DNA of 64,000 nt from Sphingobacteriales bacterium. GTDB lineage: Bacteria > Bacteroidota > Bacteroidia > Chitinophagales > JADIYW01. Location of the stretch: assembly GCA_947460245.1 (NCBI GenBank), contig CANHGL010000002.1:3588-67587 (forward strand). Reading direction: 5' to 3'. The notes under the pieces were generated by a model. That model was not told the origin of the DNA. It was given only the letters and a program-made list of their open reading frames with translations, and searched no databases. Made by a program: the position numbers and the translations under genes. Positions within the stretch are counted from its first letter, which is position 1, and every line of letters begins with the position of its first letter. Positions 36,745 to 41,929 of the stretch are shown piece by piece.

Positions 36745-36747
36745 TTT

Positions 36748-36882
36748 TTACCATTCTACTTGTATGCCACCACCATCAGGCGTAGTATGAACCGACCAAT
36801 CTAGTTTCATTTCTAGACGTTGTTCGAGTTCCTCGATGTTAAATGCTTCGTGTAGTTGTTCTTCTTTTTCTTGTGTTTTCAT
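36748..36882 (-). CDS. Candidate RiPP-type precursor peptide A (44 aa): MKTQEKEEQLHEAFNIEELEQRLEMKLDWSVHTTPDGGGIQVEW
   Basis: ATG-initiated ORF 2 nt downstream of the 652-aa gene stop, on the same strand. It is below the ORF-track size cutoff. It shares the block EELEQRLEMKLDW with the 51-aa ORF at 41198-41353; the 39-nt block differs only at 4 synonymous third positions. Confidence 0.7.
   Translation of the reverse strand: MKTQEKEEQLHEAFNIEELEQRLEMKLDWSVHTTPDGGGIQVEW
36796..36834 (-). repeat. Conserved 39-nt leader block, copy A (encodes EELEQRLEMKLDW)
   Basis: 35 of 39 nt are identical to 41261-41299. The differences are gaa/gag, cgt/cgc, cta/ctg and cta/ctg, all synonymous. Confidence 0.9.
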
Positions 36883-36884
36883 AA

Positions 36885-38843
36885 TTAATGTTTTAAGGTT
36901 AAAAATCTATTTAGTGCACTTATTACAGTGCTTGTGGTGATTATTCTGTGCAAATCTTCTATCAGTACATTTTCACCAATATCTGTTTTCTTCCATTCTG
37001 TTATGTCTTCAGGGTTTATGCAATCAGAGGCTGGAATTCTTAGCGCATAACTGGAGTCCCAGGATCCATCTGTGTTTTGTCTGTTTATTAATGCTATTGC
37101 TGATTTTTTCAGTAGGTGATACTGATCAGATGACCATTCTTTGTAATGAGATAAAGCTTTTAAGGTCATTGCAGTATATAGGATATGTTCATTACTGAAT
37201 GCATCTTTACATAAACCATTGTCCTGGATTTGTTCAAATAATAATTCAGCAGTTGATTGACATATTCTTTGCAATTCAGGATGTTGTAAGTTTTTATTGG
37301 CTTCCAAGAGGAGTGTACTGCTATATATCGGACTGGTCCACCAATAGGACTCAAATAACTGATTTGCTTTGTATTTTTTTAGGAAATAGGCTATTAATTT
37401 ATTTTTCTCTTGGGTATAGCCATCAAACTTAGATAACAACAAGAGTGTACCTGCACTTACACACAGGTGACTTTGTGTCCATCCATTAATGTTTTTTTTT
37501 TTAGGATCGTTAAGGTGATTGAGGAGTATCGTCCTATTGTTATATGTGGTAATTCCTCCATCATTTTGTTGGTAGCTTAGCACTGCATTTATTACTTCTT
37601 CTGATTTATATTGCGAGATTAAACCAAGTAGGCTGAAATTACTTGAGTCCGCATCTTCTACCCATCCTTCTATGTAGGGCCATAATATATTTTTTTTCTG
37701 ATGGAGATATTCGATTGCCTTTGGAATTATATTATTTGTTCTATGATTTTCAAACTCCTCCAGTTGATAGAGTACATATCCTGTTGTCCAGTAACCACTA
37801 AGCCATCCATTTACTGGGGAGTCTCTCCATGCACCATTACGCTCTTGTTCTTTTTGGATAAAGTTCAATCCCGATTTTATTTGCTGTAGAATACTTTTTT
37901 TTGCTGTTGGCTCATCTGCTATTTTTATTTTTTCAATAGAGCGTTTGTTTTTTATTTTTATTGATTCCAGATAAAATTCAACCTGAGTTAATACTTGTCT
38001 TATCTCTGTGATTTTCATTTCTATTACTAATTTCCATAAAGTACAGTTAATCTCTGAGCAAATCTCTGCTGCCTGAGCAAGATAGCTGATAGATTGGTTT
38101 AGTAATTTTACAGCATATCCATTTACAAACATTTTTTTCTGCAGATGCTCAATGGGTTTATTGATTAAGAGTTTATTCTTTTTTAGAAGCGTACTTAATG
38201 CAAAATTTGTCTGTTTGTTATTGTAATCTACATTCAAATCAAACAGGTCGTCATAGCATTGTAGCCCACATGAAAACAGTCTATGGGATTTTAGCAATTT
38301 TTGGTGATTATTTAAGCTGATTTTATTGAGCGTGAATAGGGAGTCTATTGCAATTTTTCCAAATGCTGATTTCCGATCAGCCAAGTTCTCAAATTCACTT
38401 TTTTTGAGGTCAAGAATAAATTGCTTGTCCGTGTAGTAAGCACTCAAATACGCTTTTTTTCTTTCTTGCCAGTATCCCCAGAATCTTTGATTATCCTGAA
38501 AAATAGAGGAGAGTATCTTTATACTTTCTTCATGATACCAATTGGATAAAATTATTTCATGTATCCTGTCTGGGTTGTCATTCTTAGTATCTAATTTTTT
38601 ATCAAGAATTAGTAAGTATTTGAAATAGAAGTATCCGGAAATATTTATTTGATTAATTTCTTTATCTCTTTTCTCAGTAAATAAAGATCCATAGCAAAAG
38701 TAAAATAGATTAGGTTCACTATTGATTTCTTTAAAGAGTAATTCTTTAATATTGCAATCTATATTTTGCTTCTTTATGTACGTTAACAGAATCTGTCGCG
38801 ATGCTTCTATATGTTTGTAGATATTATCTTTTAACATTTCCAT
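36885..38843 (-). CDS. Two-domain isoprenoid-type enzyme: N-terminal polyprenyl-synthase/ComQ-like helical region fused to a prenyltransferase/squalene-cyclase-repeat (alpha/alpha toroid) domain
   Basis: 652 aa. The N-terminal half is all-helical and carries Asp-rich motifs YLLILDKKLDTKND and FSCGLQCYDDLFD (compare the FPPS SARM GxxFQxxDDxxD). The C-terminal half has four repeats of the Q-x-x-D-G-x-W type: ERNGAWRD, QQNDGGIT, QDNGLCKD and QNTDGSWD. The function is inferred from motifs only. Confidence 0.55.
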   Translation of the reverse strand: MEMLKDNIYKHIEASRQILLTYIKKQNIDCNIKELLFKEINSEPNLFYFCYGSLFTEKRDKEINQINISGYFYFKYLLILDKKLDTKNDNPDRIHEIILSNWYHEESIKILSSIFQDNQRFWGYWQERKKAYLSAYYTDKQFILDLKKSEFENLADRKSAFGKIAIDSLFTLNKISLNNHQKLLKSHRLFSCGLQCYDDLFDLNVDYNNKQTNFALSTLLKKNKLLINKPIEHLQKKMFVNGYAVKLLNQSISYLAQAAEICSEINCTLWKLVIEMKITEIRQVLTQVEFYLESIKIKNKRSIEKIKIADEPTAKKSILQQIKSGLNFIQKEQERNGAWRDSPVNGWLSGYWTTGYVLYQLEEFENHRTNNIIPKAIEYLHQKKNILWPYIEGWVEDADSSNFSLLGLISQYKSEEVINAVLSYQQNDGGITTYNNRTILLNHLNDPKKKNINGWTQSHLCVSAGTLLLLSKFDGYTQEKNKLIAYFLKKYKANQLFESYWWTSPIYSSTLLLEANKNLQHPELQRICQSTAELLFEQIQDNGLCKDAFSNEHILYTAMTLKALSHYKEWSSDQYHLLKKSAIALINRQNTDGSWDSSYALRIPASDCINPEDITEWKKTDIGENVLIEDLHRIITTSTVISALNRFLTLKH

Positions 38844-39990
38844 ATCGTTTATTCTTTATCAGTTTTATTAATATATGAATAGTGTATCTTGCTAAAACGA
38901 TGCATAGCAATATTGTCTTTATTATATCTTGAATATTTAGAGCTGTACATTTGTCTAGTGTACCAGTGCCATAGGCTATGATATTATATAGTAATAGATT
39001 TTTGTGAATTAATAGGAAATACAAGAGATATACTAAAGCTCCTTTATTAAGTATATAATAAGCGCTTAATAATGTATTTTTTGTACTCCTCAGTTTCTTG
39101 CTAAAAAATTGAATTAAAGCCTCTTCAGAACTATTATGTAAGTTTCGATAGGAACATAAGTCATTTAATATCCAATATCCATCAGATTTGAATATTGGGA
39201 TGAGATTAAAAGTGCATTTCAATAACAGTAGTAATGCGATTGAATATGTATCGTTAAGAGATAAAAAACATCCTGTGCAGTAAGTGGAGCATAAAAACAA
39301 CGCTTCAAAATATACACCTGATATATTGACTATAATTCTTTCTCTTTTATTTAATAACCAAATTCCGGAAACATCTGAGAATGCTACTGGTATAATACCC
39401 ATGTATATTCCTATTCCTATTCCTTTGCTTTTTATACAGTAATTCCGACAAGCAGTGATATGTCCAATTTCATGTAGTAAAGTTGATCCAGTAATTAAGC
39501 AGAAATAAATCGGAATTTGATGGATGTTTATTGGGTGTATGGTCTTAGGGATGTGTAATAAATAAAATAATGTTAAAATCAAAAGTATTAGAAATACAGA
39601 TATTCCATTTCTTTTATAAAATATGGTTAAGTGTTGTATGAGAAAATTAATTTTTTCTGAGGGTATAAGGGTTGTTGCCTTCTTAATATAATTAGTTTGT
39701 GTATTTTGCTTAGTTGATTGGTCTTTATCGTTTAGTATCTTATTACCTAATTGGTTGTAAATGATATGCTTTACTTTTTCGATGCTAATATTGCGTTGGT
39801 GAATGCTGTTATAAGTATCTCGTATAGTTTTAATGCTGTTATTCCCATTAATTAAATTTATGAGAGGTAATACATTTTCAGATATACTAAGATGAAAGCT
39901 GTGCCTATTATCGAATACAATAGCTCCGTATTCCTTGTGTTGTTGGATTTTTATATCCGATCTTAGTATAGGTATCATATCTTCATACAT
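38824..39990 (-). CDS. Peptidase M50 (site-2-protease-like) membrane metalloprotease with N-terminal PqqD/RRE-like domain
   Basis: 388 aa. It has HExxH inside a TM segment (STLLHEIGHITA) and the downstream M50 motif NLIPIFKSDGYWILNDL. The N-terminal ~70 aa (IPILRSDIKIQQHKEYGAIVFDNRHSFHLSISENVLPLINLINGNNSIKTIRDTY) fits the PqqD-like peptide-binding pattern. It overlaps the next gene by 20 nt. Confidence 0.7.
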   Translation of the reverse strand: MYEDMIPILRSDIKIQQHKEYGAIVFDNRHSFHLSISENVLPLINLINGNNSIKTIRDTYNSIHQRNISIEKVKHIIYNQLGNKILNDKDQSTKQNTQTNYIKKATTLIPSEKINFLIQHLTIFYKRNGISVFLILLILTLFYLLHIPKTIHPINIHQIPIYFCLITGSTLLHEIGHITACRNYCIKSKGIGIGIYMGIIPVAFSDVSGIWLLNKRERIIVNISGVYFEALFLCSTYCTGCFLSLNDTYSIALLLLLKCTFNLIPIFKSDGYWILNDLCSYRNLHNSSEEALIQFFSKKLRSTKNTLLSAYYILNKGALVYLLYFLLIHKNLLLYNIIAYGTGTLDKCTALNIQDIIKTILLCIVLARYTIHILIKLIKNKRYGNVKR

Positions 39991-40004
39991 ATAGATAGTT
40001 TAGC

Positions 40005-41144
40005 TTATTTATAAAAATCGATAGAAGGTGTTTCTGGTATTTCGGGTTGGGAATTAATCGTTATTGATTTAAATTTTTTAAGTTGATTGTATATTGGCTG
40101 ACTCAGATCTGCGTATGCTGTTTTAGGTATTTTTAGCTTATTATCCTCTGAAATAGAGCTGGACTGAAAGATAGATTTGGCTTCAAAAGCAATTTTCTCA
40201 TTTTGAGTAGAATATTCTATTTCCATGCTGGACTTTATAGCATGTAAATACCACTTTCCTTTATAAGGCCTGAAGGATATATAAGTATTAGAAGAGATTC
40301 TTTTTTTGCTGATGAATCCACAAGTGTCATTTTTTAATAGCGTAGGCGTTTCGTTGTATTTGTTTTCGCGGAATAAACCTATAACAGCTTTTGATTGCTG
40401 GTCAATAAATAAAATAGTTTTTTGTTTGCCTTCGAGGTATAATTTATAAATCTTATAATTTCCAATGATGCTTTCAGATATATTGTATTCTTTTACCTGA
40501 TCTATGTTTTCGAGTAGAGTGCATAAAGAAGGATATAAATTACTATAGTTAAAAAGAGTATAATAAGATACATATTGTCGGTTGCTATATTTTCCATGGT
40601 TTGAATATTTTATAATATTTTTTGGAATGAATTTATTTTGTTTTCCTGAGATTGATTTTAGTGTAAAGTAATTACAGAGTTCGCCTTCACTCAGTGTTGC
40701 GCTAATAATTTGATTTTGATGTAAAATATACTCATTATAGATGCAGTTTATTTTTAATGGAGTAATACTATAATTGTTAGAGTAATTTTCTATTATTTGT
40801 TTTAAAAGTTCTTTAGGTGTTATGGATAGTATTTTTATTTCATTCAATTCATAAGCATAGGGTATTAGTTCTATATTTTTCATATCTAAGAGTTGAGTAG
40901 TAGTTATTTTTCTTGACTCGTATCCAATACTGCTAAAGACTATTGTGTCATTTGGATCGCAATCATCTATTTTAAACCTGCCATCTTTATCTGTTGTAGT
41001 TCCTGTGTTTTTTTTAACAGCGTAAATATTTACTTCAGAGAGTTTACTGTTATTTTTAGTTTGTATTACAATACCAGATATGGTAAGTGTATAGCTGTAT
41101 ATAGTTATTAGCAAAGCAATAGCTGCTAGCATAGATTTTTTCAT
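40005..41144 (-). CDS. Secreted CarboxypepD_reg-like domain protein of unknown function
   Basis: Signal or anchor MKKSMLAAIALLITIYS, then a CarboxypepD_reg-like fold signature (GIVIQTKNNSKLSEVNIYAVKKNTGTTTDKDGRFKI...IVFSSIGYESRKI). About 270 aa of beta-rich sequence with no recognised motif follow. The ORF-track N-terminal extension to 41264 overlaps precursor B and is not signal-like. Confidence 0.7.
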   Translation of the reverse strand: MKKSMLAAIALLITIYSYTLTISGIVIQTKNNSKLSEVNIYAVKKNTGTTTDKDGRFKIDDCDPNDTIVFSSIGYESRKITTTQLLDMKNIELIPYAYELNEIKILSITPKELLKQIIENYSNNYSITPLKINCIYNEYILHQNQIISATLSEGELCNYFTLKSISGKQNKFIPKNIIKYSNHGKYSNRQYVSYYTLFNYSNLYPSLCTLLENIDQVKEYNISESIIGNYKIYKLYLEGKQKTILFIDQQSKAVIGLFRENKYNETPTLLKNDTCGFISKKRISSNTYISFRPYKGKWYLHAIKSSMEIEYSTQNEKIAFEAKSIFQSSSISEDNKLKIPKTAYADLSQPIYNQLKKFKSITINSQPEIPETPSIDFYK

Positions 41145-41197
41145 AGTAAATACATTAAATAGGGCACACCGAGATTGACGGTGTGCCCATTGAGAAA

Positions 41198-41353
41198 TTA
41201 AGGATAGATGGGAACATTGTAGTTGCCATCTGTCAGAATAATCTGAGGCTGACTGGGCGCCCAATCCAGTTTCATTTCCAGGCGTTGCTCGAGTTCCTCT
41301 ACATGGAACTCATCCAGAAGATAGTCTTCCGGTCTTTCGGTTTTTTCTTTCAT
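41198..41353 (-). CDS. Candidate RiPP-type precursor peptide B (51 aa): MKEKTERPEDYLLDEFHVEELEQRLEMKLDWAPSQPQIILTDGNYNVPIYP
   Basis: ATG-initiated ORF 53 nt upstream of the CarboxypepD_reg-like gene, on the same strand. It shares the leader block with peptide A and has a divergent Cys-free C-terminal region. Confidence 0.7.
   Translation of the reverse strand: MKEKTERPEDYLLDEFHVEELEQRLEMKLDWAPSQPQIILTDGNYNVPIYP
41261..41299 (-). repeat. Conserved 39-nt leader block, copy B (encodes EELEQRLEMKLDW)
   Basis: See 36796-36834. Only synonymous differences separate the copies. Confidence 0.9.
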
Positions 41354-41442
41354 TGCATAATAGTTTTAATAAGCTTACTCTGTTTGTACTTATTTTGTAT
41401 ATTTGCAATACAACAAAACAATGGTTACCAAATCCGTTTTGT

Positions 41443-41471
41443 AAGCCGTCATTTTTAATGATGGCTTTTTT
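41443..41471 (+). terminator. Plus-strand intrinsic-terminator-like hairpin in the upstream region of the peptide operon
   Basis: AAGCCGTCAT-TTTTA-ATGATGGCTT forms a 10-bp stem with one G-U pair, followed by a T-run. On the minus strand the wobble becomes an A-C mismatch and no U-run follows. Confidence 0.45.
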
Positions 41472-41810
41472 GCTGTAATGCATTCTATACCTAATATTAT
41501 AGGTTTTTCAGCATTCACCTAATTCAAGTTAAAAAATTCGGTCCGGACCTACTTTTGCAGAAACTTGAACTAAACTGCAATTCAAACTTAGGGAGGTATT
41601 TAGACAATTCAATTTCAGTTAAACGGATTTTATAACTTAATAAAGCATAATAATTATTTTTGTATAATTATAAATTAAACAAAATCAATATTTTATATTT
41701 TAAATAAAGTGTTATAAAGTAACAATTATTTTATTCATTTATATATTCTTTAACGTAATGTTTATTCTATTTTAAGTGTTTAATAATTAATATTTTAATT
41801 ATTATATACT

Positions 41811-41835
41811 TAAAATATTGTGATTCAATATTTTA
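41811..41835. promoter_or_regulatory. Perfect 10-bp inverted repeat, candidate operator (TAAAATATTG-TGATT-CAATATTTTA)
   Basis: Seen directly in the AT-rich divergent intergenic region. A third CAATATTTTA half-site lies at 41686-41695 and an AATATTTTA at 41789-41797. Confidence 0.35.
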
Positions 41836-41913
41836 ATATAATATTTTGGACATATTCTAATATTATTATTTGTACAAATTGTGTTTTTCGGATGTACTTA
41901 GTGCATAATAAAC

Positions 41914-41921
41914 TAATTTTG
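41914..41921 (+). promoter_or_regulatory. Candidate -7 box (TAATTTTG) upstream of the CDP-alcohol phosphatidyltransferase gene
   Basis: Matches TAnnTTTG 9 nt before the ATG at 41930, which would imply a very short or absent leader. Confidence 0.3.
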
Positions 41922-41929
41922 CGTTGCCT

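Follow-up and report, generated by a model that had tools for sequence, protein, structure and literature searches.

A predicted prenyltransferase-terpene cyclase fusion for peptide maturation, encoded on an acquired low-GC island of a Chitinophagales bacterium

What does a single protein do that joins an isoprenoid synthase-like half to a terpene cyclase-like half and is encoded among genes for small tryptophan-containing peptides? The question was raised by a 64,000-nucleotide stretch of contig CANHGL010000002.1 (positions 3,588 to 67,587 of the forward strand; assembly GCA_947460245.1, a Sphingobacteriales bacterium placed in the Chitinophagales), called the window below, in which an earlier note had described a 652-aa open reading frame (ORF) of this composition. 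The protein, here called PC after its prenyltransferase (P) and cyclase (C) domains, is probably a bifunctional PC-type maturase of a peptide that is made ribosomally and modified post-translationally (RiPP), and would, by analogy with described enzymes, prenylate a precursor Trp with a long isoprenoid and then cyclise the chain. The gene and its parts were placed as follows (window coordinates; basis in brackets).

36885..38843, minus strand: PC gene, 652 aa, prenyltransferase (P) domain fused to class II terpene cyclase (C) domain (ORF call, ATG start)
37914..38843, minus strand: P domain, residues 1-310, all-alpha, trans-isoprenyl diphosphate synthase (IDS)-like, predicted Trp prenyltransferase (AlphaFold2 (AF2) and Foldseek)
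38589..38603, minus strand: first Asp-rich motif, D81-K-K-L-D85, predicted Mg2+/diphosphate site (alignments, motif census)
38226..38261, minus strand: second Asp-rich motif, Q195-C-Y-D198-D199-L-F-D202-L-N-V-D206 (alignments, motif census)
36888..37901, minus strand: C domain, residues 315-652, MstE-like class II terpene cyclase with a single (alpha/alpha)6 domain (Pfam PF13243, PDB sequence matches, Foldseek)
37641..37655, minus strand: class II cyclase acid motif, D397-A-D399-S-S (alignment to MstE)

The ORF is a real, single, ATG-started frame on the minus strand, and all strings quoted in the earlier note were located in its product: LLILDKKLDTKND at residues 77-89, GLQCYDDLFD at 193-202, and the QW-like strings NGAWRD, QNDGGI, QDNGLCKD and QNTDGSWD at 336-341, 426-431, 540-547 and 589-596, respectively. 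The two Asp-rich motifs, claimed to lie about 115 residues apart, are separated by 117 residues (D81 to D198), and the N-half, claimed to be all-helical over residues ~1-310, was modelled as all-helical for residues 1-309. The count of four QxxDG(G/S)W repeats had to be reduced: two conserved QW-type motifs were found (Q333-ERNG337-AW339 and Q589-NTD592-G593-S594-W595), while the strings at 426-431 and 540-547 were degenerate and conserved only in part. The AF2 model of the full-length protein had a predicted local distance difference test score (pLDDT) of 90 and a predicted template modelling (TM) score (pTM) of 0.84.

The fold of the P domain was resolved by structure prediction only, because sequence-only searches failed: residues 1-310 had no match in Pfam or NCBIfam even at E<=1, and a sequence profile search of the PDB with the N-half gave nothing significant, the only match being 8hdl at E 0.2. 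The AF2 model made for residues 1-315 from an alignment of 18 sequences was all-helical with a mean pLDDT of 91.4, and a Foldseek search of the PDB returned 39 matches at E<=1e-3, essentially all of which were trans-prenyl diphosphate synthases or prenyltransferases of the same fold. E. coli octaprenyl diphosphate synthase (3WJN/3WJO) was matched with a TM-score of 0.68-0.71 over ~300 columns; other neighbours were PATL_3739 (4JXY/4JYX), 3OYR, hepta-, hexa- and geranylgeranyl diphosphate synthases and MoeN5 (TM-scores of all these neighbours, 0.65-0.71). The isoprenoid-synthase fold proposed for this half was thus recovered from a model of high confidence.

Conservation was assessed in an alignment of 24 sequences and in a motif census of 143 family matches from 127 fetched loci. 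Invariant residues of the N-half were D81, D85, Q195, D198, D199, D202, D206, Q211 and N213, and the full N-half motif set was carried by 122 of the 143 matches, so that both Asp-rich motifs are conserved features of the family. The first motif corresponds to DDxxD minus its second Asp, which is absent family-wide, and the second reads FQxYDDxxD, a canonical form with a full DDxxD. Two known families were rejected for this half. Membership of the chain-elongating trans-IDS family (PF00348) was excluded by the first motif and by the lack of a polyprenyl_synt match at E<=1, only the fold being shared. ComQ (IPR033965), a stand-alone protein of ~300 aa with a degenerate second Asp-rich motif (pseudo-SARM) encoded in the comQXPA quorum-sensing locus (PMC10853753), differs from the window protein, which is fused to a cyclase, keeps the full DDxxD in its second motif and has no comX- or comP-like neighbours. 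The label 'ComQ/polyprenyl-synthase-like' given to this half therefore stood for the fold, and fell for membership of ComQ or of the canonical IDSs.

The C domain was recognisable from sequence, at scores well beyond chance. Pfam SQHop_cyclase_C (PF13243) scored 36.3 bits, its gathering cut-off being 26.1, and phmmer against the PDB gave an end-to-end alignment of residues 320-645 with MstE, a monodomain class II cyclase (E 4e-13); the 'prenylcyclase' 6IJ1 was also matched (E ~1e-13). Foldseek with the full-length model gave MstE at a TM-score of 0.83-0.86, a root-mean-square deviation (rmsd) of 2.5 A and E 1e-15, along with 6IJ1 (TM-score 0.88) and 8PAK/8PAJ. Much lower ranks were taken by squalene-hopene cyclase (TM-score 0.37-0.38), drimenyl diphosphate synthases and copalyl diphosphate synthases. 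Glycoside hydrolases of families GH105 and GH76, the RabGGT beta subunit and alpha2-macroglobulin appeared at E 1e-4 to 1e-3 only, with TM-scores of 0.62 or less, so that MstE at 0.86 lies far ahead of any glycoside-hydrolase or alpha-macroglobulin toroid. The assignment of the toroid to either prenyltransferase beta subunits or class II cyclases could accordingly be narrowed to the latter (RabGGT beta, TM-score 0.50).

The catalytic acid of such a cyclase is present in the C domain, since D399 aligns with D109 of MstE: in place of the wild-type GDADTT, the entry for the D109N variant (6sbe) has GDANTT, and the aligned stretch of the window protein is EDADSS. D397, Q589, D592, G593 and S594 were invariant in the 24 sequences, and D399 nearly so; all 123 family matches covering the motif had DxD followed by S, T or D. 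MstE (PDB 6SBB-6SBG), 6IJ1, 8PAK and 8PAJ have the same single-toroid fold (TM-scores 0.79-0.88), and MstE and other monodomain class II cyclases carry a DxD(T/S)(T/S) acid motif as the C domain does. MstE differs in being free-standing and in acting on a prenyl chain already attached to the aromatic ring of a small-molecule meroterpenoid, whereas the chain reaching the fused C domain of the window is presumably peptide-bound; R337, a mutated residue of MstE, falls in an insertion relative to the window protein. The squalene-hopene and oxidosqualene cyclases, two-domain (beta-gamma) enzymes of ~630 aa, were rejected on scores far below cut-off (TIGR01787, 35.3 bits against 322.7; TIGR01507, 17.9 against 431.1), on the presence of one toroid only, and on the motif, which is DADSS and not DxDD.

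The fusion is widespread. A word-indexed search found 29 homologues, mostly of 620-665 aa and 30-51% identical, and a look-up of encoding contigs gave a 2.2-kb duplicate only. Of 1.84 billion cluster representatives searched exhaustively with a profile, 708 matched at E<=1e-30; full-length fusions made up the great majority of the top 150. One representative of the family, P0079, has 1035 aa and two matched stretches, and may be a PC with a further domain or with a duplicated one.

Five closely spaced minus-strand genes encode, in order, precursor B, a CarboxypepD_reg-like protein, an M50-like protease, PC (the fourth) and precursor A. The first 20 nt of the PC gene overlap the end of the protease gene, and 2 nt separate its stop from precursor A. 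The island and the remaining features in it are:

36745..41923, no strand: low-GC island, 5.2 kb, 30.2% GC against 37-39% in the flanks (GC content, gene order of relatives)
36748..36882, minus strand: precursor A, 44 aa, MKTQEKEEQLHEAFNIEELEQRLEMKLDW29-SVHTTPDGGGIQVEW44 (jackhmmer precursor family, Trp census)
38824..39990, minus strand: M50-like HExxH intramembrane metalloprotease, 388 aa, predicted leader peptidase (Pfam/NCBIfam, motifs)
40005..41144, minus strand: CarboxypepD_reg-like protein, 379 aa from the ATG at 41144 (Pfam CarbopepD_reg_2, 53 bits)
41162..41188, minus strand: GC-rich hairpin GGGCACACCG...CGGTGTGCCC, 10-bp stem with 8 G-C pairs (position between the precursor B stop and the next gene)
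41198..41353, minus strand: precursor B, 51 aa, ...FHVEELEQRLEMKLDW31-APSQPQIILTDGNYNVPIYP (ORF call, precursor family, Trp census)

The two precursors share a leader (...EELEQRLEMKLDW), the coding DNA of which is 70% identical over 87 nt (repeat family D1), and diverge fully after it. The predicted modification sites are W29 of precursor A (codon 36796-36798) and W31 of precursor B (codon 41261-41263); precursor A has a second Trp, W44, at its C-terminus. With both peptides as seeds, an iterative jackhmmer search recovered 117 precursor-like ORFs, 113 of them unique, from 75 of 82 sources, all sharing ELExRxE within an F-x-V-E-E-L-E-x-R-x-E leader. A Trp follows ELExRxE by 3-8 residues in 111 of the 113 unique precursors, and the C-terminal parts are hypervariable. 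Of 81 PC loci, 75 encoded an M50-like protease, in most cases directly downstream of PC, and 23 a CarboxypepD_reg-like protein, including that of Chryseobacterium ureilyticum (L091). The 80 PC loci returned by the genome scan were nearly all from Bacteroidota.

The protease of the window carries the motifs HEIGH (residues 173-177) and NLIPIFKSDG (262-271). It scored 26.3 bits with Peptidase_M50, just below the gathering score of 27.2, and 77.6 and 66.4 bits with the NCBIfam models daptide_HExxH and YydH/LiaK, respectively, both below cut-off; it is a distant relative of the daptide and YydH/LiaK RiPP proteases. Its gene lies upstream of PC in the window, and downstream, often overlapping PC, in the other loci (L002-L081).

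An enzyme of this kind has been described before, and the remark in the earlier note that no described peptide-modifying enzyme joins these two folds is out of date. According to a 2026 review (PMC13290415), ChrPC (Hubrich et al., Chem 2024) joins a prenyltransferase domain of trans-IDS-like type to a cyclase domain and uses C10-C20 donors to prenylate an internal Trp of a ribosomal peptide, the prenyl group being cyclised afterwards, while NctPC, from the same 2024 study, combines an ABBA-fold prenyltransferase with an MstE-like cyclase, geranylgeranylates Trp and then cyclises. Cyclised isoprenoids on ribosomal peptides were unknown before 2024, these two enzymes being the only ones characterised, and the ChrPC P domain has no InterPro entry (PMC13290415). 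PC-type enzymes have thus been known since ChrPC, and the window PC is an uncharacterised addition, possibly of an uncharacterised clade.

Likened by description, ChrPC and the window PC are both single polypeptides with an N-terminal trans-IDS-like P domain and a C-terminal class II cyclase; both P domains lack a family assignment (InterPro/Pfam for ChrPC, Pfam/NCBIfam for the window), and the internal Trp of a ribosomal precursor that ChrPC modifies has a predicted counterpart in the window. NctPC shares with the window PC the fusion of an MstE-like cyclase to a prenyltransferase, but its P domain has the ABBA fold, whereas that of the window is all-helical and trans-IDS-like. For the P domain taken singly, the nearest comparisons are Trp prenyltransferases of the all-alpha IDS fold. 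The structural neighbours reported for the crystal structure of one of these, Ord1 (3WJO, 4JXY and 3OYR; PMC12510300), are the same as the top Foldseek neighbours of the window P domain. PalQ, with D89/D93 in its first motif and Q197/D200/D204 in its second (PMC10853753), shares the DxxxD first motif, the i/i+4 spacing and the Gln-x-x-Asp of the second motif; Q197/D200 of PalQ and Q216/D219 of Ord1 are implicated in indole N-H recognition and diphosphate contact (PMC13290415, PMC10853753, PMC12510300). PalQ, ComQ and Ord1 are Trp-specific, stand-alone proteins of ~300 aa without a cyclase domain, unlike the window PC; ComQ and Ord1 have a pseudo-SARM where the window protein keeps the full DDxxD, and PalQ needs a terminal Trp where the conserved Trp of the window precursors is internal.

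The suggestion that an isoprenyl diphosphate is handled in one domain and transferred or cyclised on the peptide with the other is supported by the two folds, the conserved catalytic motifs and the operon partners. Starting from these observations, and by analogy with ChrPC, PalQ, Ord1 and MstE, a course of events may be proposed. Precursors A and B would be bound through their common leader (F-x-V/I-EELEQRLE), and the P domain would bind an all-trans prenyl diphosphate (C10-C20, most likely farnesyl or geranylgeranyl diphosphate (FPP or GGPP) from primary metabolism) via Mg2+ at D81/D85 and D198. Ionisation of the donor would yield a prenyl cation for transfer to the conserved Trp (W29 of precursor A, W31 of precursor B) at its indole, the N-H of which Q195 and D198 may orient. 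The tethered chain would then enter the MstE-like C domain, where D399 of DxDS(S/T) would protonate the terminal double bond, and the product of the cation cascade would be a polycyclic terpenoid, either fused with the Trp or attached to it. The leader would be removed by the membrane M50-like HExxH protease, and the CarboxypepD_reg-like protein may assist envelope transit or localisation. This division of labour, with transfer in the N-domain and cyclisation in the C-domain, is likely because the C domain is specifically a cyclase and not a prenyltransferase beta subunit.

Several observations weigh against this reading. The first motif is degenerate, lacking the second Asp, and the loop that follows it was modelled with lower confidence. 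The nearest Chryseobacterium homologue is only 32% identical in the P domain, the C-halves of the C. ureilyticum and window proteins gave no BLASTP alignment, and PCs of the Chryseobacterium clade have a DIDD motif and are nearer to squalene-hopene cyclase (E 1e-23) than to MstE. No gene for a dedicated prenyl diphosphate synthase or for a transporter was found within the island.

The best-surviving alternative, to which we give a low probability, is that PC only prenylates, the C domain being silent, a peptide- or lipid-binding scaffold, or active on another substrate. Such a reading would accommodate the difference between the DxD[S/T] cyclase clade of the window and the DxDD clade of Chryseobacterium, the tandem occurrence of both PC types in some genomes and the split of P and C into separate ORFs in others; it is, however, hard to reconcile with the retention of D397 and D399 in all 123 family sequences covering the motif, with MstE itself using DxDTT with D109 as the catalytic acid and its fold being kept at an rmsd of 2.5 A, and with the conservation of the fusion over hundreds of cluster representatives, which argues for a function.

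Less probable still is a peptide-independent bifunctional terpene synthase, in which the N-domain would elongate the chain (for example, as a GGPP synthase) and hand a free diphosphate to the C-domain for cyclisation, as in the fungal PvCPS. The trans-IDS fold and the canonical FQxxDDxxD second motif of the N-half would fit such an enzyme, and fusions of a prenyltransferase with a class II cyclase are known in fungi (PMC12393454), but the first motif is without both its second Asp and the downstream RRG-type element, Pfam polyprenyl_synt gave no match even at E<=1, the co-occurrence of PC with Trp-bearing precursors and a RiPP-type protease is near-obligate, and MstE, the closest cyclase relative, acts on a prenylated aromatic and not on a diphosphate (as stated in the PDB entry titles). 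A LanC-like or prenyltransferase beta-like toroid that attaches a lipid or forms thioethers, with the N-domain as donor carrier only, is very improbable, for although (alpha/alpha)6 toroids are common to these families and RabGGT beta is in the Foldseek list (rank 37), its E-value of 3e-4 compares with 1e-15 for MstE, neither Pfam Prenyltrans (PF00432) nor LANC_like was matched, and precursors A and B lack the Cys expected of such substrates. All three alternatives are disfavoured by the degenerate first motif, the near-obligate precursors, the retained acid of the cyclase, the ranking of the folds and the lack of Cys in the peptides.

The family to which the window PC belongs divides by cyclase motif into DxD[S/T] (87 matches, the window type) and DxDD (36 matches). 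PC genes of several Chryseobacterium species and of Epilithonimonas, Capnocytophaga and Apibacter came up in a second genome scan, for which a divergent subgroup was used. At the C. ureilyticum locus the parts are those of the window (a precursor with ..EELEQRFEMKAW.., the CarboxypepD_reg-like protein, PC and the M50-like protease), and its PC is 32% identical to that of the window over residues 44-298 (E 2e-30). In a profile-profile comparison the alignment of the two PC groups ran full length and kept their DxD motifs in register, with a score that one common sequence inflates. The Chryseobacterium clade is set apart from the window PC by DxDD in place of the DxDS(S/T), MstE-like C domain, by an M50 gene downstream rather than upstream, and by the Chitinophagales host of the latter. 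If ChrPC itself is from Chryseobacterium, it falls in the DxDD, squalene-hopene-cyclase-like clade, and the window PC in an uncharacterised sister clade.

Tandem PC genes, one of each motif type, were seen in Tenacibaculum (L013/L098), Flavobacterium resistens (L109) and F. foetidum (L015/L116); at least in L015, each PC has its own precursor set, of the RYEF-W and RLEM-x-W types. Separate P and C ORFs, adjacent or ~1.3 kb apart, were present in L069 (Chryseolinea sp.), L079, L106, L071/L105 and L102 (Chryseobacterium mucoviscidosis), and fusion is therefore not obligatory, unless the split ORFs are frameshifts or assembly errors. Four loci of Flavobacteriaceae and Tenacibaculum (L009, L014, L016, L019) have 3-5 near-identical tandem precursor genes each, with Cys-containing cores (for example, ...W(Q/E)CxxxxxxxxxCNF), the sequences of which suggest additional disulfide or other cross-links in some family members. 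PC loci were also found in metagenome-assembled genomes (MAGs) labelled as non-Bacteroidota, namely Candidatus Zambryskibacteria (L018), Rhodospirillales (L073) and Symbiobacteriaceae (L126, with a PC only 23% identical), labels that may reflect binning errors or rare transfers outside the phylum.

The five genes constitute an acquired island with boundaries at ~36745 and ~41923, because DNA of 30% GC fills the gap between HutI and CDPOH, which are contiguous in relatives. Lying on the opposite strand, the island separates hutI from the gene for a CDP-alcohol phosphatidyltransferase (CDPOH), and hutHUI from hutG. In the three nearest hutI-bearing relatives (L208-L210) the order is TilS-HutH-HutU-HutI-CDPOH-GtrA-HutG with ~100 bp between HutI and CDPOH, and the island occupies exactly this gap; neither a PC nor an M50 gene was present in any of the 80 hutI loci. 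The threonyl-tRNA synthetase of the window shares 88-89% identity with those of uncultured Chitinophagales MAGs. Terminal repeats that would point to a mobile element, direct or inverted, were not found around the island, the sole long repeat being the leader-coding pair; no flanking integrase was found at the island, and the flanking hut genes had no megablast match in the plasmid collection.

The start of the CarboxypepD_reg-like gene was revised to the ATG at 41144, because the overlap with precursor B produced by the mechanical TTG start at 41264 is thereby removed and a signal-peptide-like N-terminus (MKKSMLAAIALLITIYS) is gained. The protein would be an envelope or export accessory; its ~280 C-terminal residues have no family assignment. 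The hairpin between precursor B and this gene is strong but has a weak T tail, and neither promoter-like nor terminator-like sites were more numerous in the region than in shuffled controls. From its position, the hairpin is possibly an attenuator or an RNA-processing element that sets the precursor-to-enzyme ratio or stabilises the precursor transcript.

The window PC opens no new category of enzyme, and its value is incremental. Tentatively, and with the chances against it, it may be taken to belong to a majority, uncharacterised DxD[S/T] (MstE-like) Bacteroidota clade, maybe apart from the DxDD clade, with a chain length or ring system other than those of ChrPC and NctPC; one enzyme would then serve two unrelated cores, with the second Trp of precursor A also modifiable, and the product would be a new terpenoid-peptide scaffold acquired horizontally by an uncultured Chitinophagales lineage. 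The locus is a compact five-gene island with exact boundaries, amenable to direct synthesis and expression. More generally, PC fusions of the trans-IDS type form a large, mostly Bacteroidota family with a uniform leader-plus-Trp recognition element, hypervariable cores and two cyclase clades, and are a source of enzymes for lipidating or rigidifying peptides and of new terpenoid-peptide natural products.

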